Shown here one piece after another: positions 12,766 to 35,930 of a stretch of DNA of 64,000 bases. Position numbers and translations under genes: made by a program. The notes below the pieces were generated by a model. That model was not told the DNA's origin, ran no database searches, and was given only the letters and a program-made list of their open reading frames with translations. Source of the stretch: Macrostomum lignano (taxonomy: Eukaryota); assembly GCA_002269645.1 (NCBI GenBank), contig NIVC01002830.1, positions 1 through 64,000 of the forward strand. Direction: 5' to 3'. Position 1 is the stretch's first letter, and each line of letters opens with the position of its first letter.

Positions 12766-14434
12766 GACTACTCGCTGGAGTTCCGGCCAACCAGCCAGCA
12801 CGCCAACTGCGATTCGCTCTCCCGCCTGCCGCTGCCAAGGCAATTTGAGGAGGAGCCGGCCGTGAACGCTCTGCTGCTAAACGAGGAGACCGGATCCGCC
12901 ATAACGGCTAAGGCAGTGGCGCGGCACACCCGAACGGACGCCGTCCTCGGCCACGTGCTGCGCTGCCTGTAGGCCGGCGTGCCCATGACCGGCTCGGATC
13001 TCATCGACTTTGCCAGGCGTAGCAACGAGCTGAGTGTCGAGCAGGGCTGCATGCTGTGGGGCGCCCGCGTTGTGGTGCCAACGGCTCTGCGGCAAGGCGT
13101 GCTGGACGAGCTGCACCAGGCGCACCCCAGCATCAACCACATTCGAGCGCTGGCCCGCAGCTATGTCTGGTTGGCCAGGCCTTGACAAGCAACTCGAGAC
13201 GACTGTCAAGTCTTGCCGGACCTGCATGCTCAACCAAGCCAACCCTCCCAAGGCGCCAGTGCAGCCATGGCCGTTTCCGGCTGAACCATGGGCGAGGCTG
13301 CACCTGGACTTCGCAGGCCCTGTTGACGGCCGCACCTACCTGGTGATTGTGGACGCCTTTAGTAAGTGGCCGGAGGTTCTTCGGGTGCATAGCGTCACGT
13401 CTATGGCTACCATTGAGCGGCTCCGCGAGGTCTTCGCCAGACTGGGTATCCCCCGAGTACTGGTTTCCAACAACGGCACGCAGTTCACATCTGCGGAGTT
13501 CGCCAAATTCACTAGGCGCAACGGCATCCATCATGTCTTCTCTGCACCATTTCACCCGGCAACGAACGCGCAGGCGGAGAGATTTGTCCAAGTGCTTAAG
13601 CGGCACCTGGTCAAGAGCGGGCACTCAGCGGCCGCTCTGCAGCAAATGTTGATGACTTATCGCAACACGCCGCACTCCATCACCGATGCGGCCCCCAGCC
13701 AGCTGCTCATCGGAAGGAAATTGCGCAGTCGGTTGGACTTGCTGATGCCATCGCTGATGGACAGCATGCAACAACGCCATGAGCAGGAGGTGGAGCAGCA
13801 GCCGCAGGCACGTGATTTCCAAACCGGCAATAAGGTTCTGCTGCAAAACTTTAGTACTGGAGGCACTCGTTGGACTGAAGGTACCGTGCGATCTGCCGGC
13901 GCGCGCAACTGCACTGTTGAAGCTGATGGCACCATCCACCGACGGCACACCGATTAGCTGTTGACAAATTCGCTTCCCGATGCCGAGACTGTGTCATCAC
14001 CATAACTCTCAGATGCGACGACCCCGACAATTGCTGAGATGCCAGACAAAGTTGCTAGACCCATAGACAGCGAGATCATCAACCCTGCTGACAGCATCGG
14101 TGGCACAGTTGCAACAAACACCCAGGCCAGGCGTTACCCACAACGGCGCAGACAACCGCCGGATGGCCTTCAACTATGATTGGGGACTGTTACTTTGACC
14201 TGACTGAATTTCTTTGAACTTTAGGGGGGAGATGTCAGATGTTAGTGCGCAAGCACTAATCATCTAATGTTTATACTGTATATTCAAGTTTATTTTCTGT
14301 CTATGGTCTTAATCTTGAGGACAGCCGCCTACCAAATATATACTCTTATGCAAACGACGGACCACGGCCAGCAAGCGCTTAGACCGAAGCACCGTCATTC
14401 TACATCGCATAGTCTCATCGGCCATAACTCGACA
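12766..14434 (+). mobile_element. 5'-truncated Gypsy (K02A2.6-like) fragment: RNase H end, integrase, PPT, 3' LTR
   Basis: YSLEFRPTSQHANCDSLSRLPLP; LHQAHP..ARSYVW/WPGLD..CRTC; RLHLDFAGP; LVSNNG (D mutated); NAQAERFV. PPT AGGGGGGAGA at 14223-14232. LTR TGTC...GACA at 14233-14434. Stop and frameshift present. Confidence 0.9.
14233..14434 (+). repeat. ~200-bp 3' LTR of the truncated Gypsy
   Basis: Starts TGTCAG directly after a polypurine tract and ends CTCGACA, directly before the MULE-1 right arm. Confidence 0.75.
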
Positions 14435-15556: not shown

Positions 15557-16603
15557 TGTAAGAGCCATTATTCCTTGCCTACTATACTTATACATTGCCT
15601 TATAAATACGACTATTTTTTAGATTCGATTGAAGAATTCTGTGCCTAATAAATATATGTTTTTAGTATTGTTAAGTAGTAAAATAGCATCAATAGTAGCT
15701 TTTAGCCTAATTCTGTATCTTTAATTAGTTTTAATATGTACGCCATTTTTACCTGTAATACTATAAAAGAGAGAGAGAAAAATAAACGAAGGAGAACTTG
15801 CGCTCGTTGGTTTCCTCCGCCTGCCAATTTTAGACTCCGGTCTTGGCCCCAGCGGTTGTAATTGTTCCAAAAATAGATCTGAATTGGTCTTAGTCATTTA
15901 AAGGCGCTCCGCCTTCCCTCTCCCACGGAGCTTCGTACAGCCAGAAGCGTACAGGCCTCCTTTCCCCACTCTCCCCAGGACGTGCAGTCCCACCCCAAGC
16001 CACTCCCCTTTCCTCCTCTTTCCCAGAGAATATACGTCCCGCCCCTCAATCCTCTCCCCTCTTTGTGGACATTCTGTCTGCACAGGTGTACAGCCTTATT
16101 CCCTCGGACTTACAGTCTGATCCTCCCCCAAGCATCCCCGCTCCCGACCCTTCTTCGTAGAAATTTCCCACATCCATTAGGCAGATTGCCTTCTTATCTA
16201 ATGCTGTCAGCATTCCCTATTAGTATTTAGAAGTTCCCCTTAGTGTGCTTTCCCAGGCAACTCTGATCCATCGCGAAGCCCTTAATTCCATCTCCCATCT
16301 ATATTTCCCGGACTGAGAATAGAAACTGTGTCTTGCCGCTCGGACACACCACGCCACCAGGAGCAACCTACGGCTTACTCCTGTTAGTAGCATAAATTGC
16401 GAAGTTCGCCCCGGATTCTAAGAAGACCCTGAAAATTCCAATAACCCTCGACCCCCCTTACAACAGATTTTGGTGTCAGAATAGGAAAAACTTCCCTCCC
16501 CCAAGAACCCTATAACAAATTTGATTGCAGCAGTAAGATTCTTAGACAAAAGGACCAGAACCCTACAACAGATTTGGTAGCAGCGTTGTTTACCCCTACA
16601 ACA
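15557..16603 (+). repeat. 5' LTR (1047 bp)
   Basis: TGTAAGAGCC...CCCTACAACA; matches 24075-25121 except for 6 substitutions found by eye. Confidence 0.97.
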
Positions 16604-16606
16604 ATT

Positions 16607-16619
16607 TGGTGGCAGCGGT
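16607..16619 (+). promoter_or_regulatory. Primer-binding site, complementary to the 3' end of tRNA-Leu
   Basis: TGGTGGCAGCGGT lies 3 nt after the LTR and is complementary to ACCGCUGCCACCA, the typical 3' end of metazoan tRNA-Leu(AAG/UAG). Confidence 0.8.
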
Positions 16620-16691: not shown

Positions 16692-17681
16692 ATGGCCGCA
16701 GGAATCAATGAAGCCCTTGCGCTATTAGCTGAAGAGCTCCGCAACCGACTTGAATTAGGCCCCCTTAGACATGTGAAAATCCAGAAATACCTCCCCAGCC
16801 AAGATATCAGAGTCTGGCTTACCGCATTCGATCAGCGATGCGAGAACGAAGGAATAGATGAGGAAAACCGGAAGCAGGAACTGCTTACCAATCTAGACCT
16901 GAGTACTGCGTTTGCAGCAGTTCAACGCCTCAACCTCCCAGCTAATCTCCCCTATGAAGATTTCAAGGAAAGACTAATCGAAAGATTTGGAAAAGTAGGT
17001 AGCTCCGCCGAATTTCGCGAAGAGTTTAGGAATCGCTGCCAAGGCAGAAACGAATCCACTGACAGTTTTGCCGATGCTTTGATTGAATTAGCCTCCCGCG
17101 CATTCCTAAATATGGATGCTGAGCAAAGAGAGGAAGAACTTGTCGAGCAGTTCATTAAAGGCGTGAGAACCCCTCCCAACACCCGTGAGAAGCTGATCTT
17201 TGCCCAACCGGCTAGTCTCCAAGCCGCTCGCAGAATGCTGCGCAGAATTGAAGCTGCTTATCAGATGTCCCACAAAGGTGGAATCCGAGTGACTAAAGAT
17301 GAGAAAGAGGAGAATAAGGTCAGAACCGATCAATTGATCATTGACCAGCAGACTAAGATTGACCGCCAAGAAAGGCTTATTCAGAACCTGCAGAAGCAAC
17401 TGGCCGAAACAGCGCAATGCGCCCCGCCATCTCAGGTGTTCCCCCAGCAACAGTATAGGCAGCCACCTGCTCAGCAGTACAGGCAACCAAACCCTCAGCT
17501 GTACAGACAGCCTCCCCAGCAGCAGTACAGACCGCAACCTCAGCAGCAGTACAGGCCCCAGCTAATGAACCAGCCGCCAAGACGTGAACCCCCAAGAAGA
17601 AATGAACGTCAGCCCCCTAACCCAAGATATGAGCCGCTGAAGTTCCGCAACCCCCGTGACTCCCAGAAGTCGGGAAACTGA
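16692..17681 (+). CDS. gag: Gag (capsid-like region, coiled coil, Gln/Tyr/Pro/Arg-rich tail, no CCHC knuckle)
   Basis: Intact 329-aa ORF after the PBS, with retrotransposon gag-like motifs (WLTAFD..C, FRNRCQGRNESTDSFADALIELA, EQFIKG). Confidence 0.9.
   Translation: MAAGINEALALLAEELRNRLELGPLRHVKIQKYLPSQDIRVWLTAFDQRCENEGIDEENRKQELLTNLDLSTAFAAVQRLNLPANLPYEDFKERLIERFGKVGSSAEFREEFRNRCQGRNESTDSFADALIELASRAFLNMDAEQREEELVEQFIKGVRTPPNTREKLIFAQPASLQAARRMLRRIEAAYQMSHKGGIRVTKDEKEENKVRTDQLIIDQQTKIDRQERLIQNLQKQLAETAQCAPPSQVFPQQQYRQPPAQQYRQPNPQLYRQPPQQQYRPQPQQQYRPQLMNQPPRREPPRRNERQPPNPRYEPLKFRNPRDSQKSGN
17672..17678 (+). promoter_or_regulatory. -1 ribosomal frameshift slippery site G GGA AAC
   Basis: X XXY YYZ heptamer directly before the gag stop (TGA 17679-17681). 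The -1 frame is stop-free from 17672 and in phase with the pol ATG at 17837 (165 nt). Confidence 0.85.
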
Positions 17682-20600
17682 GAAGCCAGGGTCGAGTTAA
17701 GAGGCCACGCCCCTCAGGCCAAAATATTGCTTACTCTCCGGCCTCCTCATCATTCGAAATTGCCCCCCAACCAAAATACCGGCAACCTCCCCAGTACGGT
17801 TTCCGCTATCCCCGCAAAACCTCTCATGTACAGCCAATGCCTGTGAATAATGCGATATTTACCTCACCCAATAACTTCTCATTACTCGCTTGCGACGAAA
17901 TCGATGACGTCACGCCAATTGCCCCCCATGACCCCCATGTGTACAATGACCCCCATGCGACTACAGCTCATGCGACTGCTTCCCATGTAACCAATGCGAT
18001 TTCTGCTCATCACGCGTCCGCACCCCATGTACCCACTGCGCTTGCACCCCATGTATCCCATGCGATTGAAGCCAATAATGCCTTATCCAGTGCTGAAACC
18101 CGCTCAAAGAAGCGACGAAAGCCAAAACCCAATTCCCCATCCCGAATCGACCTGACTAAGCTAGAAGGCTATGAAGCTGTAATAGTCGGCGATATCCAGA
18201 AAGAATCGATTGATTTCTTGCTAGACACAGGCGCCAGAAATAATTTCCTGAGCCGCTCAACCTGGTCTAAGCTATTCCGTGCCGATCAAATCCGAGACAC
18301 TAGCAAAAGCATTAGTACATTTGACGGTACCCCAGTTCAATTAGAAGGAGAAATATCCGCCCAAGTGAAGTTTGGCGATATCCAAATCGAAGTTGATTTC
18401 CTCCTATGCCGACATGATTGTGACAATATTCTAGGTATGGAATTTTTCCTATCCCAATGTGAAAGCATTCAGCTAGCCAAAGGAATGCTAGTGCTTAATG
18501 AAGGTACCTGTATACCCATGCAGTATACCCGTCTACCCGTGAAAGTTTGTCGAGTCTATACTCAAGAAAGAGTAATCATCCCAGCTAATAGTGCCCTCCG
18601 AATACCCGTGAAATTAGCCAAGAATTGTGAATCAAATTACGGCACTCCCATGACCATTGAAACCATTGGCGATACTATCCGAACCCGTGATTTCTCATTA
18701 GAAATGGTTCCGACCCTAGTAACCATGAAAGAAGGCAAAGGAATTGTCGAGATTATTAACCGCCACCCAGTAGATGTGAATCTAACTAAGACTTCCCTAA
18801 TTGGCTTAGCCAGACCCATGAAGGCTAAAGATTTAACTTATTGGCAAACCCCAACTCCCAACCCCCAACCCTCTGCGAAAGTCAACCAGACTCAATGTAC
18901 TGAAGATTCTTGGATTAATGAAGTGAGCCTTGGCCCTGAATTATCGAATGAACAGCGTAAAGCAGTCATCGATCTTATGAAAGAAAACCGTGAAGCTTTT
19001 TCCCAGAATGAATTAGACATGGGCCTGACACACCTAGTAACCCACGAAATCTCTATTAAAGACCCCACCCCCGTTAGAATCCCAGCTAGACGCATCCCCC
19101 CACACTTGCAAAAGCAAGTTGATGCCCAGTTAGATGATATGTTAGCCAAAAACCTAATTAGACCCTGCTATTCAACCTACTCCACCCCCCTAGTAATTGT
19201 CCCCAAGAAAGATGGTTCTATTAGAATCGTGAGCAATTTCCGAGTGCTCAATTCAAGAGTTAATTATTACCCCTACCCCCTCCCTAATATTCAAGAGACC
19301 TTCTCCCACCTAACTGGTAGCCAATATTTTAGCAGCCTAGACTTAAACTCAGGATACTGGCAAGTCCCCATCAAAGAAGAAGATAAACATCGAACCGCAT
19401 TCTCCACCCTAACTAGAGGCCAATTTGAATATCAAGTAATGGCCCAAGGACTTTCCAATGCCCCCGGAACCTTCCAACGCCTAATGAATTTAGTACTATT
19501 AGGAATTCAACATAAGTTCGCCATGTCCTATATCGATGACATAATAGCCTACTCCCAAACTTTTGCCGAACATTTAGAGCACTTAAGAGAAGTGTTTAAG
19601 CGACTAATTGCCGCAGGTCTGAAGTTGAGACCCAAAAAGTGCAACCTTTTCCATCACGAGTTGAAATATCTAGGACACGTGATTGGCCGACAAGGCATTC
19701 AAACAGACAAGACGAAGATTGAAGCAATCCAAACTTGGCCCCGTCCCAAAGACGTAAAAGAATTACGCAGTTTTCTTGGCCTATGCAATTATTATTGCCG
19801 ATTTGTGAAAAATTATGCTGAAGTGGCTCACCCCCTATTCCAATTGACTCGAAAAGGAGTTCAGAATTTCCAATCTAAGTGGAGCAAAGTGCATGACGAA
19901 GCCTTTGAGTCCCTGAAGCAGCGAATGATGTCTACTGAAGTGTTAGCATACCCCGAATATGTCGAAGATGAAAATGTGAAAATGGTGCTCGACACAGATG
20001 CCAGTGACGACAGGATTGGCGCATGCCTTGGCCAAATCCAGAGTGATGGCATAGAGCGACCAATAGCCTATTTTAGTAGAGCAATGAAGGAATCAGAGAA
20101 GAGATACCCCATTACTCGGAAAGAATTGTTAGCCCTTGTCGACGCTATGAGGCATTTCAGATTTTATCTGATCGGCAAGAAATTCTTAGCCCGAACTGAT
20201 CATAAAGCGATAATTTGGCTCATGAAACAAACTGAAGCAACCGGAATCCTAGGTAGATGGATAGAGCGTCTGAATGAATTCAGGTTCGACATTGAACACA
20301 GAAGCGGCGCAAAACATTCCAATGCCGACGGATTGTCGAGAAGACCAGCTGAGATAGCTGAAGCCCCTGAAGTATCCTCTGAAGCAGCCCCTGAACTTGC
20401 TGAAATAGCACCTGAAGCAACCCCTGAAGTCCCTGACGCAGCCACTGAGCCTGCTGAAGCGATCATTGAAACCCCTGAAGCATTTGAAGAAAATTTTAAG
20501 AAAACTGAGCCAATCCCTGAGAAAGTTGAGAAGTTGACCCCTGTTCCCCTGAGAGATGAGAGTGCTCCCGCTGAAACTAAGGACAACCCCATGTCCCAGT

Positions 20601-22510
20601 CACCTGAAGCCCTGACAGAAAGCGAGACCCAGCTTGAATGTCCCAAATCTAGGACAAAGCTAATTGTCTCAGGTAGAGAAGTAGAAGTAGAAGAAGAGAC
20701 AGGAAAGTGTGAGAAACTGTTAACTGATTATCTCCCCAGCCCCCTGAAGAAAGAACAAATCCAAGAAGCCCAAGCTGCTGACCTCATCATCAAAGCTCTG
20801 TTAGAAGCCAAGAAACAGAAGTTGAGCCAACTTCCCAAAACACCGGACGTGCCAGAAAAGATCAGTAAGCATTATGCGCTGATGAAAATCGATAATGAAT
20901 TATTAACAATTACTGAAGACGGAAAAGACAAAGTAGTTTTGCCCTCATCCCTAGATAAAGCAGTCTTTACTGACCTTCACTGCAGCCCCCTCGCAGGACA
21001 TTTAGGAAGAGATAAGACGCTCCAGAGAATCCGAGAAAGATTTTGGCGACCTGGACTAAGCACTTCAGTTGAGCAATTAATTGCTGAGTGCATCCCCTGC
21101 CTTGAGAGCAAGAAAGGACACTTTGTCCAGGCCCCAGTCCAGTCATTCCCCATTGGCGAAGCATTTAGCCGCCTGCACATAGATATTATCGGTCCAATTT
21201 CTAAAGAAAGCAAACGAGGTCATAAATATGTCCTGACAGTTGTTGATAGTACAACTAGATACCCCTTCGCTTTTCCCATTAGAAACCAAAAGTCAGACAC
21301 AGTTATTAAGATACTACTTGAACGGATAGTAGCAGAGTACGGACAGCCCACCTGGATCCACACAGACAATGGAAAAACTTTCGCTAGTAAACAATTTAAA
21401 GCTTTTTGCGAACTTTATAATATTCGCCACACCTTCACTACCCCCTACCATGCCCAATCTAATGGACTAGTTGAACGTTTCAATAAGCAAGTCAAGTCAA
21501 TCATCACCTGTCTGATCAATAAGGATCATGGTGATTGGGATTTACTAATTCCAGCAGCCCTAGTAGCAGTCCGCACCAGCCCCAATTCAACCACAGGTTT
21601 TTCCCCTCACTTCCTATTATTTGGCAGAGAAGCCACCTTACCTCTAGACACTCAGATCAGAAGTACAGCAGAACACGCTGATTATCCCGCCTACATTACT
21701 AAGCATGCCGAAAGATTAGAGGAAGCTCATAAGATAGTCAAGAAGAAGTTGGAAAAAGTAGTAGAGAAAAGACAAGTCGCCGCTGAAACTAACAAGCTAC
21801 CCCCTAGAATTCCTATAGGTTGCCTTGCACTGATTAATAACCCCCAGCTAGATAGCGAAGAATCCCACAAGTTCCACCGAAAGAAGAGATCCGCCTTTAG
21901 AGTTTTAGCCCAACTATCAGAAGTGGTTTTCAAAGTCCAGAAAGAAGAAGAAGGAGAATTAGTAGGAAAAGAAATGCTCGTGCATCGAGATAACTTAACT
22001 CCAGTCCCGAACTCAACCCCAGAACAAATCACTAAGGAAGGCCAGCGAGATGCCTCTGATTCCGCCCCTGTTCCCATCCCCACTTCCGCTAAACCTAAGA
22101 GACAACCTGTAATTAAGGAAGGCCAACCCCGCCGAAATTCCCAAAAATTAATCTTGCCCGAACCAGTTGAATCAGAAGAAGAATCCGATGAAGAAGAAAT
22201 TAATTGGAGATGCCAAATTAGAGAAGCAGAGAACGAAGAGTTAGAAGAAGGAGACAATGAAATCCAGCCAGAAGAATGGAGTGAAGCCCAAACAGAGGAA
22301 GCGAATGAAATGACCGATGAGTCAGAGAGTGAGGCCCCAAACGAAGAGATCCCTGAGCCCCAACCCCCCTCTCCTGCCCCGCGAGATCCCGAACCCCCGC
22401 GCCGTCACCCCTACAATTTAAGGCCCCCACCCCAAAATAAACAGCGTTGCAACTGCCATCTAGACAGACTACTAATAGCACTAAACCTCTTGCGCAACTT
22501 AGAATTTTAG
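17672..22510 (+). CDS. pol: Pol polyprotein (protease, RT, RNase H, integrase), probably translated as Gag-Pol by -1 frameshift
   Basis: FLLDTGA (PR), YIDD (RT, 19529-19540), LDTDAS..IGACL (RH), H-x4-H...C-x2-C zinc finger, LHIDIIG / IHTDNG / NGLVERFN (IN DDE). Uninterrupted ORF of more than 1550 aa. Confidence 0.95.
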   Translation, partial: GKLRSQGRVKRPRPSGQNIAYSPASSSFEIAPQPKYRQPPQYGFRYPRKTSHVQPMPVNNAIFTSPNNFSLLACDEIDDVTPIAPHDPHVYNDPHATTAHATASHVTNAISAHHASAPHVPTALAPHVSHAIEANNALSSAETRSKKRRKPKPNSPSRIDLTKLEGYEAVIVGDIQKESIDFLLDTGARNNFLSRSTWSKLFRADQIRDTSKSISTFDGTPVQLEGEISAQVKFGDIQIEVDFLLCRHDCDNILGMEFFLSQCESIQLAKGMLVLNEGTCIPMQYTRLPVKVCRVYTQERVIIPANSALRIPVKLAKNCESNYGTPMTIETIGDTIRTRDFSLEMVPTLVTMKEGKGIVEIINRHPVDVNLTKTSLIGLARPMKAKDLTYWQTPTPNPQPSAKVNQTQCTEDSWINEVSLGPELSNEQRKAVIDLMKENREAFSQNELDMGLTHLVTHEISIKDPTPVRIPARRIPPHLQKQVDAQLDDMLAKNLIRPCYSTYSTPLVIVPKKDGSIRIVSNFRVLNSRVNYYPYPLPNIQETFSHLTGSQYFSSLDLNSGYWQVPIKEEDKHRTAFSTLTRGQFEYQVMAQGLSNAPGTFQRLMNLVLLGIQHKFAMSYIDDIIAYSQTFAEHLEHLREVFKRLIAAGLKLRPKKCNLFHHELKYLGHVIGRQGIQTDKTKIEAIQTWPRPKDVKELRSFLGLCNYYCRFVKNYAEVAHPLFQLTRKGVQNFQSKWSKVHDEAFESLKQRMMSTEVLAYPEYVEDENVKMVLDTDASDDRIGACLGQIQSDGIERPIAYFSRAMKESEKRYPITRKELLALVDAMRHFRFYLIGKKFLARTDHKAIIWLMKQTEATGILGRWIERLNEFRFDIEHRSGAKHSNADGLSRRPAEIAEAPEVSSEAAPELAEIAPEATPEVPDAATEPAEAIIETPEAFEENFKKTEPIPEKVEKLTPVPLRDESAPAETKDNPMSQSPEALTESETQLECPKSRTKLIVSGREVEVEEETGKCEKLLTDYLPSPLKKEQIQEAQAADLIIKALLEAKKQKLSQLPKTPDVPEKISKHYALMKIDNELLTITEDGKDKVVLPSSLDKAVFTDLHCSPLAGHLGRDKTLQRIRERFWRPGLSTSVEQLIAECIPCLESKKGHFVQAPVQSFPIGEAFSRLHIDIIGPISKESKRGHKYVLTVVDSTTRYPFAFPIRNQKSDTVIKILLERIVAEYGQPTWIHTDNGKTFASKQFKAFCELYNIRHTFTTPYHAQSNGLVERFNKQVKSIITCLINKDHGDWDLLIPAALVAVRTSPNSTTGFSPHFLLFGREATLPLDTQIRSTAEHADYPAYITKHAERLEEAHKIVKKKLEKVVEKRQVAAETNKLPPRIPIGCLALINNPQLDSEESHKFHRKKRSAFRVLAQLSEVVFKVQKEEEGELVGKEMLVHRDNLTPVPNSTPEQITKEGQRDASDSAPVPIPTSAKPKRQPVIKEGQPRRNSQKLILPEPVESEEESDEEEINWRCQIREAENEELEEGDNEIQPEEWSEAQTEEANEMTDESESEAPNEEIPEPQPPSPAPRDPEPPRRHPYNLRPPPQNKQRCNCHLDRLLIALNLLRNLEF

Positions 22511-22886
22511 CCCGTCTACACCTTCCTACCCCTCCCTCGCCGTCCCCATTCGCCCAACAGACCCCAAATTTTAGACAAAGAGAGCCCTCGACTAGACCCT
22601 TGCTATACACAAAGGACCCCTCGAATTATCGATCAACAAAGAAATTAGAGCCCAAAGAGCGTAGAAAAATGAGGTTGGTCACGAAAACAAGAGGACCTCC
22701 CTGGTCTGTGAACAATAGTCAGTAAATATAAGCATTTTAGGCCGTTGCACAATCAGATCCCAAGCCTCCTGCTCTCCGAAATTCCCGAATCCTCCGCAAT
22801 CACTACTGTCAAGCCCGACTTTTAAAATTTCTACTATCCAAGCGATTTTTAAGACCCTATACTGATCAAGCAATCAGTCCCCAATC

Positions 22887-23909
22887 ATGTACTCCGAGGA
22901 GAGTCTTAGGCAATTAGAGGATGACCTCCGCCTCAGCGATTCTGACGCTGATGAGTTCGACGACGAATCAGATAGCGACTTGCCTGTCCCCGAGCGCCAG
23001 CCTACGAGACCAAGTAAGCCCGGTCCCAAGCCCCGCATCGCCTCGGTTGTGACTCGTCCTCCGCCATCCACCTCAAACGCCTGCCCACCGTCATCCGCCT
23101 CAGACGCCTGTCCTCCGCCATCCACCTCAAACGCCTGCCCACCGTCATCCACCTCAGACGCCCGCCCGTCGCCATCCATCTCGGAAGCTCGAGTAGCACT
23201 GCTCAAGCGTCACGCCGACGTGCCAGTTGCTATCTCCCCGGCCGCCATTCAACGCCAACCCCCCAACACCAAGTCGGCTATCGTTTTGAGCACGAGTGAA
23301 GCCCCGCCGCCGCCCATCCGCAAGAGACTTGGACCCCGTCCTTCATCAGCGCAACAAGAGTCTCGACCCCGCTCCCGATCTCCGCCGAAGCAGCAGCCTG
23401 TGAAACCTCTTGTCACCCCGCCGCCGAATTATGGAGTACGGCCGATGAACCAGCCGCGTTCCCGCCCCGCTCCGCCGATCAAAATGGAGCCACTGGATTC
23501 TGGCATACCGCCCCTGATGGCCGGCTTTGTCAGGCAGGATCAGCCGCTGCGCGAAATCGGCGGTAACTTCACACAAGCTGTCGAGAGCCTGCCGGAGGCT
23601 CAGCGTGCCAGCTACCGCCGCCTGATTACGGCCATTAAGCTGTACTTGGTTCAGGCTGGAAGGTTTCGAGACGGACGCGAATTCCCACAGCGCGAGACTC
23701 TGCGGCCGGTTTTAAATAATCTGCGCCAACTGCAGCCCGTGCACGCAGTCGCTGCTTGGAGGCGCGCTGTGCATTACGCACTATCGGACCTTCGTCGCGG
23801 CCCTCGACGTTTCAACGAGCAGAGCCTCGGCCTCGAAATTCGCTGGCTCGGCCAGGAGTGCGGCTGGCCGTATCGTAATCAACTGCCAAGCGAGTTTAAT
23901 ATGTTTTAG
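22887..23909 (+). CDS. Gypsy ORF3: 340-aa accessory protein of unknown function (not env-like)
   Basis: Intact ATG-to-TAG ORF between pol and the 3' LTR: acidic N-terminus, 27-bp PPSTSNACP-type repeats, Pro/Ser/Arg-rich middle and ~110-aa helical-looking C-terminus. No signal peptide or TM segment. Confidence 0.8.
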   Translation: MYSEESLRQLEDDLRLSDSDADEFDDESDSDLPVPERQPTRPSKPGPKPRIASVVTRPPPSTSNACPPSSASDACPPPSTSNACPPSSTSDARPSPSISEARVALLKRHADVPVAISPAAIQRQPPNTKSAIVLSTSEAPPPPIRKRLGPRPSSAQQESRPRSRSPPKQQPVKPLVTPPPNYGVRPMNQPRSRPAPPIKMEPLDSGIPPLMAGFVRQDQPLREIGGNFTQAVESLPEAQRASYRRLITAIKLYLVQAGRFRDGREFPQRETLRPVLNNLRQLQPVHAVAAWRRAVHYALSDLRRGPRRFNEQSLGLEIRWLGQECGWPYRNQLPSEFNMF

Positions 23910-24074
23910 TAGCATTTGACATTCATTTTGCATGCGTAAAACTTTTAGATACATCATTTTGTTTCCATAATCTACGTTTTAATTTTGTGTGTATTGTTCA
24001 TTATTGCCTTATTAGTACTTTTTGAAAATTTTCACTCATTACTCATTCAAATTTTTCAAGCCAGGAAAGCCAAT

Positions 24075-25121
24075 TGTAAGAGCCATTATTCCTTGCCTAC
24101 TATACTTATACATTGCCTTATAAATACGACTATTTTTTAGATTCGATTGAAGAATTCTGTGCCTAATAAATATATGTTTTTAGTATTGTTAAGTAGTAAA
24201 ATAGCATCAATAGTAGCTTTTAGCCTAATTCTGTATCTTTAATTAGTTTTAATATGTACGCCATTTTTACCTGTAATACTATAAAAGAGAGAGAGAAAAA
24301 TAAACGAAGGAGAACTTGCGCTCGTTGGTTTCCTCCGCCTGCCAATTTTAGACTCCGGTCTTGGCCCCAGCGGTTGTAATTGTTCCAAAAATAGATCTGA
24401 ATTGGTCTTAGTCATTTAAAGGCGCTCCGCCTTCCCTCTCCCACGGAGCTTCGTACAGCCAGAAGCGTACAGGCCTCCTTTCCCCACTCTCCCCAGGACG
24501 TGCAGTTCCACCCCAAGCCACTCCCCTTTCCTCCTCTTTCCCAGAGAATATATGTCCCGCCCCTCAATCCTCTCCCCTCTTTGTGGACATTCTGTCTGCA
24601 CAGGTATACAGCCTTATTCCCTCGGACTTACAGTCTGATCCTCCCCCAAGCATCCCCGCTCCCGACCCTTCTTCGTAGAAATTTCCCACATCCATTAGGC
24701 AGATTGCCTTCTTATCTAATGCTGTCAGCATTCCCTATTAGTATTTAGAAGTTCCCCTTAGTGTGCTTTCCCAGGCAACTCTGATCCATCGCGAAGCCCT
24801 TAATTCCATCTCCCATCTATATTTCCCGGACTGAGAATAGAAACTGTGTCTTGCCGCTCGGACACACCACGCCACCAGGAGCAACCTATGGCTTACTCCT
24901 GTTAGTAGTATAAATTGCAAAGTTCGCCCCGGATTCTAAGAAGACCCTGAAAATTCCAATAACCCTCGACCCCCCTTACAACAGATTTTGGTGTCAGAAT
25001 AGGAAAAACTTCCCTCCCCCAAGAACCCTATAACAAATTTGATTGCAGCAGTAAGATTCTTAGACAAAAGGACCAGAACCCTACAACAGATTTGGTAGCA
25101 GCGTTGTTTACCCCTACAACA
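24075..25121 (+). repeat. 3' LTR (1047 bp)
   Basis: Near-identical to the 5' LTR; preceded by AAGCCAGGAAAGCCAAT (imperfect PPT). Confidence 0.97.
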
Positions 25122-26305
25122 CTCTCAAAAAAGTATAATAGTACATTTTAGCAAAAAATGCAAATATGAAAATTAACAAATATATTGTATATATATATTA
25201 GAAAAGAGAAAAAGTGAAAAATGAGAAGGAAAGAAAGTCAATAAATTATGGAACTTCAAATAGTAAATCTGAATAGGCCTAACTGGTAGACAGTCAACAA
25301 TTTTTATAAATGTCACAATAAAATATGAGGGATTTTATTTTTGGTATATTGAAAGATATAAACATGGTAAAGAAATTCAAATAGCATGGGAAAATTAAAA
25401 TACTTTATGCTTAGCTATATAAACAATAGCAAATTATTAGCCTATTAAATAAAACCAGAAATTCAAAATACTATACTCTAAAAATTGAAATATTATAAAA
25501 CTGAGTCTAATATACTCCCTTATAGTATAAATTATATATTAATATAGTCTAAAGACAGTCAATGGAATAAATACAATTGTTTAAGACAATGTATTTTTGT
25601 AAGGAAGGGCCTACCAAGGCATTAGACAGTTGAAAATTCAAGTTCAAGAGAGTAAAAGGTAAAGTATAAGGATGCAAAATCCTGAATGTGAAAAGAGATT
25701 TAAACAGCCTTTAAAATAGAGTGACTAAAAAAAAGACTAGGAATGTTTGCAGAAATACAAGCCAACCAGCTTATTAATATTACTAGGCCTACTACTACTA
25801 GAACTAAGCCCCATTGACCAACCCACTTAAATAAAGCTGCAGCAGACTGCAGAATTAAAATTAATTGCGCGTGCACGAGGTGTCTTTTATTCTAGTCCTT
25901 AAGTGACTTTATTCTCTAAATTTAAATGTATTTAAATATTTAGAAGCAAAAGAATTAGACTAAGGTTTTTGTTTTAGTATGTTACACTCAGATTGGATCC
26001 AATCCAGGCTGATCTGATCCAATCCGTCTTTTAGTGAGACCTGGTAATTAACTGCTGGCTGAAAGATTTATTCAATTTATCCACTATAACAAAGAAGCTA
26101 TCTTCTTGCCTTAAGTTATATGTTTATTTGTCACAAAATTATTTTAATTTACCAGCTATTTTAAATAGAAACAACTATTTCTATATTTGTATATTTTTTA
26201 AGGTTATGTTATGTAGGCCAAGATTTATAAGTGTTTTTTAAAACTAACTTAAGTTAGGCCTAGATAAAAGTTTTTATTTACTACTTGTGATAAGTAGTTA
26301 AATTC

Positions 26306-26865: not shown

Positions 26866-27942
26866 TGTGGTAGGTGGGCTACCACCGGTGTTTTTGCTTT
26901 GTCCCCGGGTTAGGCCCTTTTGGTCCACCATGAGGTGCGAAATGACGTGTCCCGCCATCTCTCGTTCCCGGGTTTGCCCCTTTGGTTGGTCCCGCGGTTG
27001 CGCCCTTGTGTGGTTTGTCCCTTTCCCGTCTGTGGCCCCTTTTGTTGCCCCACCCCCGTGCCTAATTTACTTTGCTTATTTTCGGTTTAATATTTTGTTT
27101 TTTTCCAATCGATGCACCACCGCTGGATCCCGTAACTGATCCCAGCGTTGGCCTTGTTCACCCCAACTTGTGTCCTAACTTCTCCGTGTATATTTAATCA
27201 ATGCGAAATCGCAGCGTTTTACAAACTTCTCTAGCTTCACTAACTTCTCTAACTTCTCTAACTTTTTCTAATTTTTTTAACCTTTTTAACTTTTCTTTTA
27301 CTGTTTTTCCTCTCATCCTTTGTGTTTAACATTTAACTAGCTGTAGTCCATTAATAAAGCTTAAGAATCCTAAGTAGTTTAGCACCCCGGCACGCCGGAT
27401 CCACTTCCTCGATCGTACCTCGCTCCCTGTCGCATCAATACTTAATCCCTTTCGTTCGTCGACTTAATAAAACCGTAAACAGTCCGCTATTAATTTTCCT
27501 ATCAATTAACTGAAGCCTCGTTAGTCTATATTAAGTTATTTGCCCGTGGGGCGTAAAACAACAAGTTCTCAACTCAAAGAAAGTCTGAGACTTCAACGTT
27601 CCGTAATACGTAAATTACGGTGGTGGCAGCTCTACCCTACTGAAAGTAAGCCGATCAGCACATTCAACGCGTAAATTCTACGGTGTCAAAATCTACGGCG
27701 TCTACCATCTGAACGACCGTGCCGCTCTAACGACCGCTCTGCTACGATTACGACTACCCTCCCCCCGGACCTGAGGAACCCGGCAGTCGGAGTAAAACAG
27801 GAGAAAAGCGTCCGAATTTTCTGCAAATTTTTCCGGCTTTACAAGTGCCGAAGATCACGAAGGCGGCAGTTTAAAGTTGAAAGAAAAACCGCTCCAAGCT
27901 CCCAAGATCACCACTAAATTTTTCTTTTCTCCCCCCACCTCA
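26866..27942. mobile_element. Solo LTR (1077 bp) inserted in the MULE-2 left arm
   Basis: TG...CA ends with 4-bp TSD CTTG (26862-26865, 27943-27946). The right arm keeps the empty site (GCATTACAAGTTATGC at ~36128-36143). Confidence 0.9.
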
Positions 27943-28149
27943 CTTGTAATGCCTATTAAAATGCTTATTTGAAAATTAAAAGTAAAACACCGAAATTTAA
28001 CATTCTAGCTAAAAAACCTTAAAACAAATATATATAAAACTAAAAAACCTATCAACAATTGTTGGTGACGCCATAGATACAATATAAATATACCAAAAAG
28101 CTGTACATGTAATATGTTCAATTCCTGTAATTTTTCAGCAAAATTACTT

Positions 28150-28578
28150 TGGTGTACTTCGGCAGGAACCATTGTGAGTACGAAGCTGAAAACTGAGATC
28201 TGGAAGGAAACATTATCAATCTAGAAGCCTACAAGACGCCAAGGCTCCATCTGTTCCCTACTCGAACTTACAGACTCCCAAGTCCCCCCTGCTCAGTACA
28301 CTCAGCTGCAGAAAGTACTTTAGTGTACTTCGGCAGGAACCATTGTGAGTACGAAGCTGAAAACTGAGATCTGGAAGGAAACATTATCAATCTAGAAGCC
28401 TACAAGACGTCAAGGCTCCATCTGTTCCCTGCTCGAACTTACAGACTCCCAAGTCCCCCCTGCTCAGTACACTCAGCTGCAGAAAGTACTTTAGTGTACT
28501 TCGACAGGAACCATTGTGAGTACGAAGCTGAAAACTGAGATCTGGAAGGAAACATTATCAATCTGGAAGCCTACAAGA
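28150..28578. repeat. MULE-2 left arm: ~2.5 copies of a 171-bp unit
   Basis: GTGTACTTC recurs at 28152, 28323 and 28494. Confidence 0.95.
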
Positions 28579-29232
28579 CATTGCTTGAAATGTCTTTGAA
28601 ATGTCTTGAAATGTCTATTTCATTGCTTGAAATACTCGTACTTCAATTTCGCGTCAAATACACTCGCTCTCGCTGGGCTCGTTTCGCCCGACTTTTCGCC
28701 GCCACCCCTGCGTCTTCTTGTTCCTTTCGGTCCGGTTGGCTAAAGGTTTTTTTCTTGGTCACCTGTTCATTGCATTTTTTTATAACATGTTTTTGCCATG
28801 CTTGTGAATTCGTTAACTTTGCTACCCTCCTCTTTTTGCAACCAGGCTTGGGACTGGCTTTGGCAGAGTTTCTCACAAAGTTTTTGTGATTTGCAGAAAA
28901 TTCGTTAAATGCACAAAGAAATGTTGCTTGAGCATTTTCCGCATTGTATTCTTTGCTGAGCTATTGGCTCTCTCATGCGTATGATATTTAGCATGTACAA
29001 GTTTTTACTGTATAAGGTATTAGCTTTGTTATGCTAAATGTTTATGTTTTCTAGTTAATGTCATGTTTTTATACAGAAGATATTGGATATTATAGATAAT
29101 AAATATTTGGATATTATATAGAAAATTTAAGATATTATGTATTTCGAATATTATATAATATACGGAAGATCTTAGATATTATGTATTACAAATATAATAT
29201 TTTCAATTTAAGAAATCAGATACTACGAGCGT

Positions 29233-29431
29233 ATATGCAAAATACGCAGACGAGTATTTACAATTTCAGATACTATATGCAAAATACGCAGATGAGTATT
29301 TACAATTTCAGATACTATATGCCAAATACGCAGACGAGTATTTACAATTTCAGATACTATATGCAAAATACGCAGACGAGTATTTACAATTTCAGATACT
29401 ATATGCAAAATACGCAGACGAGTATTTACAA
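29233..29431. repeat. 42-bp minisatellite (~4.7 copies) downstream of the MULE-2 gene
   Basis: TATGCAAAATACGCAGACGAGTATTTACAATTTCAGATACTA repeated in tandem. Confidence 0.95.
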
Positions 29432-29472
29432 CAGTGTGTTCGCACAAAGCCGGTGAAAGTCAAAGAAAAATT

Positions 29473-32400
29473 TTAGTTGTATGGCACGCAGCAGCACACA
29501 TAGCTATGAGCGCTGTGGCGCTGGAGCATCTCTGGAGAGGCGCATTCAATGTGCATCCATGAGTCACAGAGGTCGCATTGTAGCCAAGTACCACTCTCTC
29601 TGGCTTCTGCTTCGTTGCAGAGTATGCACGAGTTTGCGTTTCCATTATTCGAATAGGCTGTGCCTTCTAAATATTCCCAAATATGGGTTCTTGCTTTGTT
29701 AAAAAATTGCCTCGAAGTTGGAAAGCACGAAGACCTGAATTCATTATCGTTAGATGTGATCAATACTTTTGCGTAAAAGCACACAAAGACTCCACAGTTG
29801 TAGCCATCTGCTTGAATGGATCTTAGCATCGATTTATTCCTATATTTTCCTTGAACACTAGGAACGCACATCTTTACTTGGGCCGTGTTGATGAACCTGT
29901 GCCAAAGCTCAATGTATCGATTCGTTATGTCGCTGTTCCTAATTGGCCTTGTGTCTAAGACTGCAAGTTGCTTTGTGTTCAAATCAATATAGACTAAGTG
30001 AAAGTGGTCGTTTTCTAAAATGGGACTCAGTAGGCGCTTGCAACCGGTTGAAACAGTGTTCTGTAGCATCCTCAGTGCATCATTCGAATCTACGTTTCGG
30101 ATGCAGCTGAAGAAGCTGGACGGCAAGTGACCAACTTCACGATCCGGGTTGCTAACGCAGAGAAGATGGAAAAAGGCATTCACGATGCCGATGGACAGCC
30201 ACTGCCCTGGTGCTAACGAATCTTTGTCGTACCTGCTCAGGAAGTCTCCCGCCCGAGTGTACCAAACCTCTGAGTGCTCTTGGTCGTGCGTGCCTGATGG
30301 ACCAGATGTCATTGGGTTGGTACGGTGGGCTCTTTGACTTGTTTTCTGCCGTTTATATTTCGAGCGCGTATTTGATTCACGTTTTTTCCACTCCTCCTGG
30401 CATGATGAAATGTCCTCACGCTTTCTCTTTCGTCCTGACAATGTAGCATTTCCACACTTGTTAAATATATTGAATGCAGATATGCGAGCTTTCAAGTACT
30501 TCAACTGCATCTCAACAAAGCATGTCGTGCGCACTCTCTTTCCTCTCTTTGATATGCGTGATTTCACGTCGGCAAAGTATGATTCAACGTATGAATTTGA
30601 AAACCAGCTCTTTTTCTTCTCAAATCTTTTTAGAGCAGCTATAAAATGACAAAAGAGAGGCGCCAGGCTGCACCAGTTTTTTAGAAGGTAAATCAGCAGC
30701 TGCGGAGAATAATATTTTTCGAAAGGCGTGTTAGAAGGCTCAGTGCTGTCAATTATTTTCTGCCTTGCCAGAAACAGGCTAAAGAATGGCGAGTTTTCTC
30801 GGAGCGATTTAATTCGAATAGCATGTGATTTATCATCACAAGGTTTGGGTTTTTTTACTTTTTCGTTTATGTCTAGCAAAATGTTTTCATCGGTTGTGGT
30901 GTGAGTCGTTTCCCATTGATTGATTTGATTTATTAAGTCCCGAGGATGGCGCTGCCCTAGGAATGTTTCTGTTACGATATTCAATGTGAACTCAAACGCC
31001 TCAAAGGTTTCCTTCGACAGTTCCTTTTGCTTTGATGCCTCGGGCAAATGCATGAATTGCATGATTAGTGCAAATAAACGGAATCGTGTACGATATGGAC
31101 CTCCCACTGTGAACTGCCTCGAATGAATCGACCAGGTATTCCTCTAAGCTGTTTCCAAATGACCGACAAACTGAATGCAACATCGCCCATGAAAAGTCGG
31201 TGACAATTACAGCCGGCATAAACACGTATGACATCAGTGTGCCGGAAGCGAGTGCTCCTAAATCAGCTCGCACAGAGAATAGGAAATGTTGAATTGATTT
31301 TGTTTTATGATCGCTTGTAACCATCTGAGCCACTGGTACACTGATGTTTCCTGGTTGGCGGAGGGAAGTACTAGGGAGTACAGCATCATCTTTTTGCCTA
31401 GGCGCTGGATCTTTTTGAAAAGGCCGCCAGTCGCGTCAAGATGCAATACACACTGAGGCCTGTTGACTATTAATTCAAGTTGCTTTTCCAGATACAAATG
31501 AATGTGAAAAGGGCGACGTGATGTGGCTTGAATGTAGCCTAGCACGTACTTACTCTCCACATCTGTATCGTGCAAAATTTGCTGCTGCACAGAGAGTTCG
31601 ACTTCAACATTATTGTGGAGACGATCTTCAGCAGAGACAATGCGCTTTGCATTGACGCGCCGAATGGCTTCTAAATTCTTTGCTCTTGAGAAGTTGTACT
31701 CGTCTCTGTCTCTCTTAGACATTTCGGAAAGAAGCCTATCGTGAACCTCTGTTGGTGCATCGGCTTCAAGCAGCTTCGTTATCTTTTGCGCCTCCGCAGG
31801 GGTCATTCTCGAAATCGTAGCTTTTTGGTGACATTTTCTGCCCCTGCTATGTACCACTACCTCCACTGGCTGATTTGAGGTAGGTACGTTGGAAATTCTG
31901 AAATCGTCAACAATCTCGCAACCAGCGTGCTGACAAAAAGCGACTTGTTTTAAAAAATATTTTGGGTTTTGCCTTTTGGAACACGGAAAGTTCACATAGC
32001 GATTTTTGAATTTTAACACACAATTACTTCCCTGTTCACTAGCAGAGCAATAGCTTCGATAGTTTTCCCTCAACGTATCTAGCCACCATGATGCTGCACT
32101 CCGCGTGAGTGCAGCATAATTCTTCTGACTCTGCCTAATTTTCATATTTTTTTGCCACACATCAAAAGACAACTTAATAATAAAATTCGAATAATGAAAT
32201 TGCTTCACAACATCACTGCTCTCCGCATCATCACTCCGACCAGCATCACTCCCAACATCATCACTCACAACATCATCACTCCCAGCATCATCACTCCCAG
32301 CAGCATCACTCCCAACATCATCACTCCCAGCAGCATCACTCCCAACATCATCACTCCCAGCAGCATCACTCCCAGCATCATCAATCCCAACATCATCACT

Positions 32401-33750
32401 CCCAGCATCATCACTCCCAGCATCATCACTCACAACATCACCACTCCCAGCAGCATCACTCCCAGCAGCATCACTCCCAGCATCATCACTCCCAACATCA
32501 TCACTCCCAGCATCATCACTCCCAGCATCATCACTCACAACATCACCACTCCCAGCAGCATCACTCCCAGCAGCATCACTCCCAGCATCATCACTCCCAA
32601 CATCATCACTCCCAGCATCATCACTCCCAGCAGCATCACTCTCTGCATTATCACTCCCAACATCATCACTCCCAGCAGCATCACTCACAACATCATCACT
32701 CCCAGCAGCATCACTCCCAACATCATCACTCCCAGCACCAGCCCTCCTAGCAGCACCAACAACACCGGCAGCACTCCTCCCAGCAACACAGGCAACACCA
32801 GCAACACCAGCAACACCAGCAGCACCAGCAGCACTCCTCCCAGCAACAGAAGCAGCACTCCTCCCAGCAACACCGACAGCACTCCTCCCAGCAACACCAG
32901 CAGCACTCCTCCCAGCAACACCAGCAGCACTCCTCCCAGCAACATCAGCAGCACCAGCAGCACTCCTCCCAGCAACACCAGCAGCACCTCTCAAAGCAAC
33001 ACCAGCAGCACTCCTCCCAGCAGCACAAGCAGCACTCCTCCCAGCAACACCAGCAGCACCCCTCAAAGCAACACCAGCAGCACCTCTCAAAGCAACACCA
33101 GCAGCACCAGCAGCACTCCTCCCAGCAACACCAGCAGCACTCCTCCCAGCAACACCAGCAGCACTCCTCCCAGCAACAGAAGCAGCACTCCTCCCAGCAA
33201 CAGAAGCAGCACTTCTCCCAGCAGCACAAGCAGCACTCCTCCCAGCAACACCAGCAGCACCCCTCAAAGCAACACCAGCAGCACCTCTCAAAGCAACACC
33301 AGCAGCACCAGCAGCACTCCTCCCAGCAGCACCAGCAGCACTCCTCCCAGCAACACCAGCAGCACTCCTCCCAGCAACAGAAGCAGCACTCCTCGCGGCA
33401 ACACCAGCAGCAACCCACAAAGCAACACCAGCAGCACCAGCAGCACTCCTCCCAGCAACACCAGCAGCACCCCTCAAAGCAACACCAGCAGCACCTCTCA
33501 AAGCAACACCATCAGCACCTCTCAAAGCAACACCAGCAGCACCCCTCAAAGCAACACCAGCAGCACCAGCAGCACTCCTACCAGCAACAAAAGAAGGTTT
33601 CCTCCTATCATTTGGAATAGAAAATTTGTTACTAGATTTAGTCGGTATAGTTGACTTACCTCCAACGAGCTTCCTTTGGTAGAATAGCCATACAATTCGA
33701 CGATTTTCTAAACTATTTTTTGCTGAGATTTTTGAAAGATTTGCCCGCAA
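29473..33750 (-). pseudogene. NOF/Rehavkus-type MULE transposase with C-terminal Ulp1 (C48 SUMO-protease) and PHD finger; two or more frameshifts
   Basis: LHLDATG (D1, ~31440), IVTDFS (D2, ~31200), ICTNH (CxxH), FSNSYVESYF (E, ~30585). Ulp1 motifs GQWL..IVN, NDHFHLVYID..VLDT, QADGYNCG (~30230-29750). PHD CILC..WLQCDLCDSWMHIEC..YVC (~29628-29480). Frameshifts at ~31340 and ~31020. The 5' exon is unresolved. Confidence 0.9.
32205..33590 (-). repeat. Two abutting in-frame coding minisatellites: 15-bp (SDDAG-type) and 24-bp (GRSAAGVA / LRGAAGVA)
   Basis: CCCAGCATCATCACT-type units at ~32205-32735 and CCCAGCAACACCAGCAGCACTCCT-type units at ~32736-33590. Both unit lengths are multiples of 3. Confidence 0.95.
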
Positions 33751-34443
33751 GCACCATATGGGCAGCGAAAGGACTTTCTAAGACTTTCGTCACTGTACTC
33801 TTGAAACAAATTTTTGGACAAATCCAGAAACGATATGCGCCGATTGTGCGTTCCGTCACAAAGCAACACAAGAGCAGCCAGTAGGCAAATGCGAATGAAG
33901 AGACTCATGATTTGAAAGACAAGACAGAAAGCTATGATGGCGAGTTTAAGTTGGACAACAATGAAAGCAGCTGCATATATGGAGTGAGCAATGGGGAATC
34001 GTCGTCCATGGAATTAAGCAGAAGCATCCTTATTGGACGATCCATTCAATCGGGCAGATCTAAGCGTAAAGCTCTTTCATACCATGAGACTAACCACATA
34101 AGAATTGGGGGCTTACAGACGGGGTTTAGTGCGGCGAACAGGAACTAAGAGGGAATAAAAACAGACAGAAGACGGCACAGAGCACATTGACAGCATCAGA
34201 CGAAAGATAAAAGTATTACAAAAAAGACACCGAAAACGTCTAACAAAAAGCACATCAAACAAAATAAACAAAAGCGACAACTTCGAACAAAGACCTATTA
34301 TCTATTAGTAATAATACAACAAGAATTACCACAAGTAATTCCAAGCTTTAACAATTGAAGTCGCAAATGGCAGTGCCGCAACAGAAGCAACACACAGCGC
34401 CCTGCCGTCTGAGAGGGGATATTGGACTGAGGGGGGCATTAAA

Positions 34444-35930
34444 GAGTCTGTAAGTTCGAACAGATGGAGCCTTGGCGTCTTGTAGGCTTCTAGATTGATA
34501 ATGTTTCCTTCCAGATCTCAGTTTTCAGCTTCGTACTCACAATGGTTCCTGTCTAAGTACACTAAAGTACTTTCTGCATATTAATGTACTGAGCAGGGGG
34601 ACTTGGGAGTCTGTAAGTTCGAGTAGGGAACAGATGGAGCCTTGGCGTCTTGTAGGCTTCTAGATTGATAATGTTTCCTTCTAGATCTCAGTTTTCAGCT
34701 TCGTACTCACAATGGTTCCTGCCGAAGTACACTAAAGTACTTTCTGCAGCTGAGTGTACTGAGCGGGGGGGACTTGGGAGTCTGTAAGTTCGAGTAGGGA
34801 ACAGATGGAGCCTTGGCGTCTTGTAGGCTTCTAGATTGATAATGTTTCCTTCCAGATCTCAGTTTTCAGCTTCGTACTCACAATGGTTCCTGTCTAAGTA
34901 CACTAAAGTACTTTCTGCATATTAATGTACTGAGCAGGGGGGACTTGGGAGTCTGTAAGTTCGAGTAGGGAACAGATGGAGCCTTGGCGTCTTGTAGGCT
35001 TCTAGATTGATAATGTTTCCTTCTAGATCTCAGTTTTCAGCTTCGTACTCACAATGGTTCCTGCCGAAGTACACTAAAGTACTTTCTGCAGCTGAGTGTA
35101 CTGAGCGGGGGGGACTTGGGAGTCTGTAAGTTCGAGTAGGGAACAGATGGAGCCTTGGCGTCTTGTAGGCTTCTAGATTGATAATGTTTCCTTCCAGATC
35201 TCAGTTTTCAGCTTCGTACTCACAATGGTTCCTGTCTAAGTACACTAAAGTACTTTCTGCATATTAATGTACTGAGCAGGGGGACTTGGGAGTCTGTAAG
35301 TTCGAGTAGGAAACAGATGGAGCCTTGGCGTCTTGTAGGCTTCTAGATTGATAATGTTTCCTTCCAGATCTCAGTTTTCAGCTTCGTACTCACAATGGTT
35401 CCTGCCGAAGTACACTAAAGTACTTTCTGCATATTAATGTACTGAGCAGGGGGGACTTGGGAGTCTGTAAGTTCGAGTAGGAAACAGATGGAGCCTTGGC
35501 GTCTTGTAGGCTTCTAGATTGATAATGTTTCCTTCCAGATCTCAGTTTTCAGCTTCGTACTCACAATGGTTCCTGCCGAAGTACACTAAAGTACTTTCTG
35601 CATATTAATGTACTGAGCAGGGCGGACTTGGGAGTCCGTAAGTTCGAGTAGGGAACAGATGGAGCCTTGGCGTCTTGTAGGCTTCTAGATTGATAATGTT
35701 TCCTTCCAGATCTCAGTTTTCAGCTTCTTACTCACAATGGTTCCTGCCGAAGTACACTAAAGTACTTTCTGCATATTAATGTACTCAGCGGGGGGACTTG
35801 AGAGTCTGTAAGTTCGAGCAGGGAACAGATGGAGCCTTGGCGTCTTGTAGGCTTCTAGATTGATAATGTTTCCTTCCAGATCTCAGTTTTCAGCTTCGTA
35901 CTCACAATGGTTCCTGCCGAAGTACACCAA
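34444..35930. repeat. MULE-2 right arm: ~8.8 copies of the 171-bp unit, inverted
   Basis: CAGATGGAGC recurs at 34461, 34631, 34802, 34973, 35144, 35314, 35485, 35656 and 35826. Confidence 0.97.

Follow-up and report, generated by a model that had tools for sequence, protein, structure and literature searches.

To our knowledge, regulatory accessory proteins have been characterised for few animal LTR retrotransposons. In foamy viruses the accessory gene Tas/Bet is located past the enzyme genes and ahead of the 3' LTR; Tas is made from an internal promoter and activates both promoters (PMC12789967). The gene that we describe here, a 340-aa third open reading frame (ORF3) at 22887-23909 on the plus strand of the window, by which we mean the whole 64,000-nt stretch of Macrostomum lignano DNA that was analysed, has the same position, a likely internal promoter and a proposed role in trans-activation. 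It differs in having no sequence match to Tas/Bet, in residing in a retrotransposon without env and in carrying its acidic helix at the N-terminus, and activation by it is predicted only. The C. elegans element Cer1 offers CERV, likewise a novel accessory protein that is not env and belongs to an animal LTR element (PMC10309623); it shares with ORF3 a candidate export signal, as do Rev, Rex, Rec and Rem. CERV, however, is a large protein translated from a spliced mRNA, with G, M and Cys-loop domains; in ORF3 there is a single small helical domain, and neither a Cys nor a splice acceptor is conserved. Non-env third ORFs with modular exchange are also found in the invertebrate Ty3/Gypsy elements of bdelloid rotifers (PMC5408684), although there they encode recognisable enzymes (DEDDy exonuclease, GDSL esterase), while ORF3 has neither of these Pfam domains, and no recognised domain or donor. 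In Oikopleura, the third ORF (env) of Tor3b/4b is driven by a promoter that lies within pol or beyond it (PMC4402516), as we predict for ORF3; the Tor protein is however a membrane glycoprotein with mapped start sites, whereas ORF3 has no membrane features and its start is predicted only. Finally, the anti-silencing VANC proteins encoded by VANDAL DNA transposons (PMC13547354) and the additional ORFs of plants (PMC7264820) are, like ORF3, lineage-specific and fast-diverging accessory genes, but these are plant systems with different proteins, and no target motif was found for ORF3. In our reading, ORF3 has long resided in one Ty3/Gypsy clade as an accessory gene under selection; that it is functional and not an env we regard as almost certain.

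The host element is a young, intact Ty3/Gypsy LTR retrotransposon. Its two TG...CA LTRs (15557-16603 and 24075-25121, on the plus strand like all features of the element) are equal at 1042 of 1048 aligned bases (99.4%), the differences being six transitions. The primer-binding site follows at 16607-16619, where 13 nt can pair with the 3' terminus of the host tRNA-Leu (AAG/TAG), then gag (329 aa, 16692-17681) and a pol frame, open from 17660 to 22510, in which Pfam finds protease, RT and RNase H, followed by integrase, in the order typical of Ty3/Gypsy elements. The pol frame is in -1 relative to gag, and GGGAAAC at the gag stop (17672-17678) is the likely frameshift site. The ends are also those of the group, with TG...CA, a tRNA primer site and a target duplication, here of 4 bp with one mismatch (CTTT/CTCT). 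Between pol and ORF3 lies a spacer (22511-22886) that would hold an internal promoter and the ORF3 leader, and whose final 217 nt lack ATG; a short purine-rich tract at 24063-24073, ahead of the 3' LTR, is the likely plus-strand primer. The LTR elements of M. lignano have been classified, with a list of the clades present in this host (PMC12801592); candidate clades for the window element are Gmr1/Osvaldo, Mag, CsRN1 and Mdg3. Both window LTRs also carry, at their 3' end, tandem cassettes of an LTR end plus primer site (two extra ones in the 3' LTR, at 24989-24999 and 25093-25103), the first of which matches tRNA-Leu(CAG). Such cassettes are present in 16/23 representatives, with five in L053, and we found no precedent in the literature searched. 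A His/Ala-rich stretch ahead of the protease (17837-18100) is 79-82% identical in most relatives and 91-92% in three, and near the integrase C-terminus pol residues 1526-1530 (22412-22426) read Y-N-L-R-P, which we take to resemble a chromatin-binding motif.

ORF3 stands apart from pol in composition, with a GC content of 0.61 against 0.45 and a GC3 of 0.63 against 0.42, and it is free of pol's A-rich, CpG-poor bias (A 0.20 vs 0.33; CpG observed/expected 1.28 vs 0.59). Net charge is -12 over the first 35 residues and +16 over the middle. AlphaFold2, run with 25 homologs, predicts a C-terminal domain of five helices at residues ~222-330 (mean pLDDT 81; 86-96 by block from residue 231). In the full-length model confidence is confined to this domain, so that only ~110 aa are folded; short helices appear at residues 4-15 and at residues 97-110 (23175-23216, within a conserved basic stretch), and the remainder is mostly of low confidence. 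The domain (23550-23906) keeps an invariant D, P, E, W, W, L and P across 25 proteins at 23-85% identity. The N-terminus is acidic in 28 of 29 family proteins, the exception being a mis-chosen start; its predicted amphipathic helix (residues 4-19, 22896-22943) matches the class 1d nuclear-export pattern at residues 7-16, and L/F/I-x-x-L/I-L occurs in this region in 13/29. Acidic amphipathic helices of this kind can act as activation domains. P-x-R-x-x-T-R-P (residues 35-42, 22989-23012) is kept in 26/29 proteins against 0.14 expected, and Y-x-(L/V/M)-R-(P/S), which presumably resembles nucleosome-binding motifs, is found in 7/29, these motif tests, like all others in this study, having been picked after seeing the alignment and run on related sequences. 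The overall layout may resemble that of herpesvirus ICP27, and the motifs may resemble Daxx-type SUMO-binding and foamy Gag chromatin motifs.

The linkers between these conserved parts are variable low-complexity repeats. Among them are five 27-bp units at 23056-23190, which we read as a variable linker because their Cys is not conserved (it is absent in L031, L032 and L033) and the number of units differs, with one fewer in public contigs. A metal site built on these Cys was ruled out for the same lack of conservation. Peak 19-residue hydropathy is 1.01 in the window protein and 0.27-1.11 across 29 family proteins, and the furin-type R-x-K/R-R is absent from the window ORF3 and from 25/29. 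The preliminary description, made from the letters, had anticipated much of this: a 340-aa frame between pol and the 3' LTR and richer in GC than pol, intact gag and pol between 99.4% identical LTRs, an acidic N-terminus, a basic middle, a helical C-terminus of ~110 aa, and a protein that is not env and has no signal peptide, TM segment or furin site. All of it stood (the lack of a signal peptide and TM segment as judged by hydropathy and the acidic N-terminus, that of a furin site by a motif scan), while of the 27-bp Pro/Ser/Cys repeats that it reported the units were confirmed and neither the Cys nor the number of units proved constant.

The C-terminal domain has 151 matches in the M. lignano genome, 24-100% identical to the window copy (150 of 226 candidates were scored, and a distant query added more matches). 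Among 40 hand-picked ORF3 loci, pol lies upstream in 33, a short gag-like ORF alone in 5 and neither in 2. The domain is found 1-8.5 kb downstream of 86/93 integrase matches at >=70% identity, a pairing that used a typed subset of domain-match coordinates; six of the 7 integrases without it were fetched, and 4/6 hold ORF3 pieces. None of the 11 outgroup integrase rows checked, of 57, has an ORF3 domain match. Between the window and L031 the domain gives dN 0.078, dS 0.62 and dN/dS 0.13 (p 4e-12), the whole ORF3 0.15, and L054 vs L068 0.22. No interpretable ORF3 pair exceeds 1; the value of 0.73 for the window and L057 is not interpretable because of their 31% identity and near-saturated dS. 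The open frame is thus conserved under purifying selection in sister families, a point that the preliminary description had proposed to check, and we found neither a match to a known env/ENS-type or host gene nor a lack of open ORF3 frames in other copies. Its idea of a captured or novel accessory factor survives in part. The gene is conserved, selected and not env; but all 28 copies measured have a GC3 of 0.53-0.65, and a richness common to all of them is not the mark of a recent capture. A recent host capture was rejected, as no donor was found and synonymous sites are saturated between ORF3 types.

ORF3 is also an orphan protein family. Pfam, searched with the full ORF3 and with sets of 25, 12 and 17 domain sequences, gave no family (best E 0.0066-0.05, scattered); no env family matched ORF3 or the domain sequences, and no DnaJ, TatD or chromodomain matched the full ORF3 or the 25 domain sequences. 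The best E among PDB sequences against the domain was 0.11. Foldseek with the domain model, a check already proposed in the preliminary description, returned nothing at E<=0.001 from PDB and BFVD; the best VIA Z of 7.5 (rmsd 4.9, 116 aligned) is within the helical-bundle background, with unrelated rows tied, and two ESM Atlas queries yielded no usable match. Such blank fold searches alone do not make the domain a new fold. Against 1.84 billion representatives the domain profile had 7 matches, 5 of them named M. lignano (two being gene models that fuse unrelated repeats); of the other two, P0002 is a true member and P0007 a spurious repeat. In line with this host, a M. lignano protein matches an exportin exon of the genome searched at 100% identity. 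Since the cluster member P0008 reaches at best 44% identity in the M. lignano genome, the family also exists in another genome. ORF3 is not described in the open literature searched, although other sources might list it. In the main text of PMC12801592 the words 'ORF', 'envelope', 'accessory' and 'non-autonomous' are all absent, three 11-12-nt motifs were not found in its supplement 5, and the passages of PMC13524379 that were searched do not mention Macrostomum.

ORF3, its upstream spacer and U3 form one block, which is unalignable between elements with closely similar gag-pol. When 14 relatives were compared with the window, gag-pol bins were mostly 90-98% identical, whereas ORF3 and U3 bins aligned at only 0-24% in six of them (L035-L038, L040, L066). 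The protein therefore does not track Gag or Pol. RT dS is 0.2-0.3 where the dS of the ORF3 domain is saturated and domain identity is 46-54%, and integrases 97-99% identical can be followed by domains that differ by 50%. This combination of low RT dS and saturated domain dS indicates that old ORF3-U3 blocks ride one recombining gag-pol, a single backbone carrying at least eight divergent ORF3 types. Domain identity follows 3'UTR/U3 identity (Spearman 0.69 over 39 elements, the pairs not being independent), but ORF3 and U3 are not rigidly tied. Among 22 discordant pairs listed, the domain and the downstream DNA are respectively 79% and 86% identical in L033/L065, and 83% and 97-99% in L087. Adjacency, together with the lack of homology for template switching, could also keep the block together.

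Some of these blocks reside in elements that lack pol. A mini-Gag query has 50 matches in the genome. Eleven mini-Gags of 150-197 aa fall into a single clade (100/100), to which none of 14 full Gags belongs; their dN/dS is 0.10-0.13 at dS 1.0-1.7. This lineage looks undescribed; it is non-autonomous, retains its mini-Gag under selection and carries the ORF3-LTR blocks of its partners: the ORF3s of its members group with those of different autonomous elements (L075/L076 99%, L082/L058 97%, L072/L074 100%). The lineage is old; in L050, L055, L057, L072, L075 and others the mini-Gag has 191-197 aa and ends in C-x2-C...H-x-C, and its opening residues correspond to the beginning of the partner family's Gag. 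One premature ORF3 end near codon 213-218 is common to 5 of the 24 loci examined, most of which were chosen as looking broken; such sets give no unbiased intact fraction, and private frameshifts in them could be assembly errors. L096-L098 are without the domain, and the LTR pairs of these loci are 98-100% identical where both LTRs were seen. As pol-less copies can amplify with ORF3 broken, ORF3 is dispensable in cis, and these sequences make it likely that its protein acts in trans. Head-to-tail tandem elements were also seen, at L096-L097 (G000:C1833) and L074 (G000:C2404), with periods of ~4.6 kb and ~7.9 kb.

With regard to expression, a spliced or an internally initiated RNA had both been suggested, and it is internal initiation that the data favour. 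An exact TATA lies at -115..-65 of the ORF3 ATG in 10 of 23 representatives (actually 72-111 nt upstream), against a shuffle mean of 0.45 with a maximum of 4, and 0-4/23 in other intervals. CCAAT boxes are found upstream in L043, L044, L048, L060 and L053, and the two signals suggest an internal promoter just upstream of ORF3 in these relatives. In the window's own subclade the exact TATA is found in 0/7, the window copy having a degenerate one with a single mismatch at -164 (22723-22732). For splicing, no conserved acceptor was found ahead of ORF3 in the contigs of the 23 representatives. From runs presumed to be RNA there are contigs over parts of ORF3, none of them with a leader-to-ORF3 joint. 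In one of these runs depth rises about fourfold near the predicted start of L072; we gave this no weight because the same contig break occurs in other runs and contig depth cannot rank parts. Spacers and LTRs of the same element had no outstanding motif in common: cognate pairs scored 24.0 on average and non-cognate pairs 22.9. The word GATGCGGTCCAGTTTT is conserved just ahead of the TATA position in the spacers of divergent families (L050-L058, L075, L077), and the spacers of the window's subclade have GTCACGAAAAC or variants in its place.

Sister clades, represented by 14 outgroup loci with integrases 53-61% identical, have related arrangements. In the first type the pol stop is followed within 2-5 nt by the start of a 240-280-aa ORF. 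Over 99 columns the helical end of this ORF can be aligned with the ORF3 domain (P 3.5e-4, probability 37%); the two are probably homologous. Two further types have a similar tail in frame with Pol (L119, 1798 aa; L121), whose homology to the ORF3 domain is no more than suggestive (P 0.0066, probability 5.8%; P 0.27 against the first sister type). Two motifs found in the window's subclade, L-S-L-S-x-S and R-L-G, recur in L116-L119, and the Pol-fused forms keep a Met just before the motif, hence they may start internally. The integrase tree separates the ORF3-bearing and sister groups, but it has a midpoint root only and does not give the direction of change. Fused to Pol, abutting the pol stop, or separate with a promoter, these forms would be natural intermediates of how an accessory gene may arise.

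What would such a protein do? Our tentative answer, plausible but short of probable, is that ORF3 is a nuclear activator or anti-silencer that works as foamy-virus Tas does, without homology to it, made from its own internal promoter and acting in trans on the matching LTR. The TATA promoter of the spacer would give a short ORF3 mRNA independently of the LTR; the basic helical domain, or the basic linker, would find the element's own DNA or nascent RNA; the acidic amphipathic helix would recruit a host coactivator or chromatin factor; and the LTR would then make genomic RNA. We find that this fits best because of the likely LTR-independent promoter, the acidic helix in all types, the basic folded domain, its tie to U3 instead of Gag or Pol, and the likely trans action. 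Against it stand the missing exact TATA in the window's own subclade, the absence of a cognate spacer-LTR motif, the fact that ORF3 and U3 can be uncoupled, and the probable relatives fused to Pol. A broader scenario, possible but rather doubtful, would have a self-promoted transactivator of new fold that split off the end of Pol and forms with its cognate LTR a swappable cassette, many old cassettes sitting on one recombining gag-pol and the mini-Gag satellite lineage repeatedly acquiring those of its helpers. Inheritance as a block would also be explained if ORF3 bound cognate RNA elements, as Rev-type proteins do (PMC12789967), and Cer1 CERV is a Gypsy-type precedent for an export factor (PMC10309623). 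ORF3 would then be a shuttling adaptor like Rev, Rex or CERV, whose basic Arg/Ser/Pro middle or helical domain binds RNA in the 3' block and whose N-terminal leucine-rich helix brings in CRM1, so that genomic RNA is exported or stabilised. Class 1a-d export patterns (as defined in PMC5358978) do occur in residues 2-30 of 13/24 proteins (shuffle mean 2.4), and in a tight 14-residue window in 10 against 4.6 (p 0.002). However, 11/24 lack a class 1 pattern, CRM1 bound only about half of the consensus-matching NESs tested (PMC5358978), no 200-nt window over 21800-25150 folds better than z -1.0 (20 shuffles each), and no acceptor is conserved although CERV comes from a spliced mRNA. A co-fold of residues 1-36 and host exportin-1 (380-800), made from single sequences, scored 0.03 and speaks neither for nor against the adaptor. 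We hold the export adaptor to be rather unlikely.

The Pol-fused tails, the L116-L119 motifs, the sister ORF abutting pol with its 99-column alignment and the Y-x-(L/V/M)-R-(P/S) motif would also be expected if the module began as a C-terminal tail of the integrase and served the integration complex as a partner for chromatin tethering or nuclear import, being now produced on its own. We consider this improbable: homology to the Pol-fused type is weak, those forms may start internally, and domains 50% different sit on near-identical integrases, with linkage to U3 and not to integrase. Several conserved short motifs in a disordered chain, the many divergent types on one backbone and the trans action would also suit a protein that counters host defence in general (small-RNA, SUMO or mRNA-decay factors), using short linear motifs and showing no preference for its own LTR, its diversity being driven by host conflict. 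Yet no interpretable pair has dN/dS above 1, there is no enzyme fold of the kind seen in rotifer ORF3s, and we judge it to be of low likelihood. As for a decayed env or a neutral passenger, ORF3 does occupy the place of env and many pol-less copies carry it broken, but a dN/dS of 0.10-0.15 and seven residues invariant over the 25 diverse proteins are hardly compatible with decay, the highest hydropathy among 29 proteins is 1.11 and Pfam finds no env family; the selection data refute this explanation, to which we leave a negligible probability. Specificity of the protein for its LTR is directly testable, since dozens of natural ORF3 variants exist and LTR reporters and transgenesis already work in M. 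lignano (PMC12801592).

Elsewhere in the window, fragments of other Gypsy-like elements lie at 13034-13957 and 53421-55706. What looks like a large DNA transposon occupies 27942-36137, where long inverted arms containing 171-bp repeats enclose two minus-strand ORFs, one of which (29473-31143) ends in a PHD-like Cys pattern while the other (31258-33777) has long internal repeats. At 37099-45652, inverted arms of 551 nt surround transposase-like frames (39410-42632), and a near-perfect palindrome of 573 nt with a 43-nt spacer is found at 48829-50017. Finally, an 889-aa frame on the minus strand (56998-59667), in which fibronectin-II-like and many thrombospondin-like repeats can be recognised by eye, is likely a host gene.
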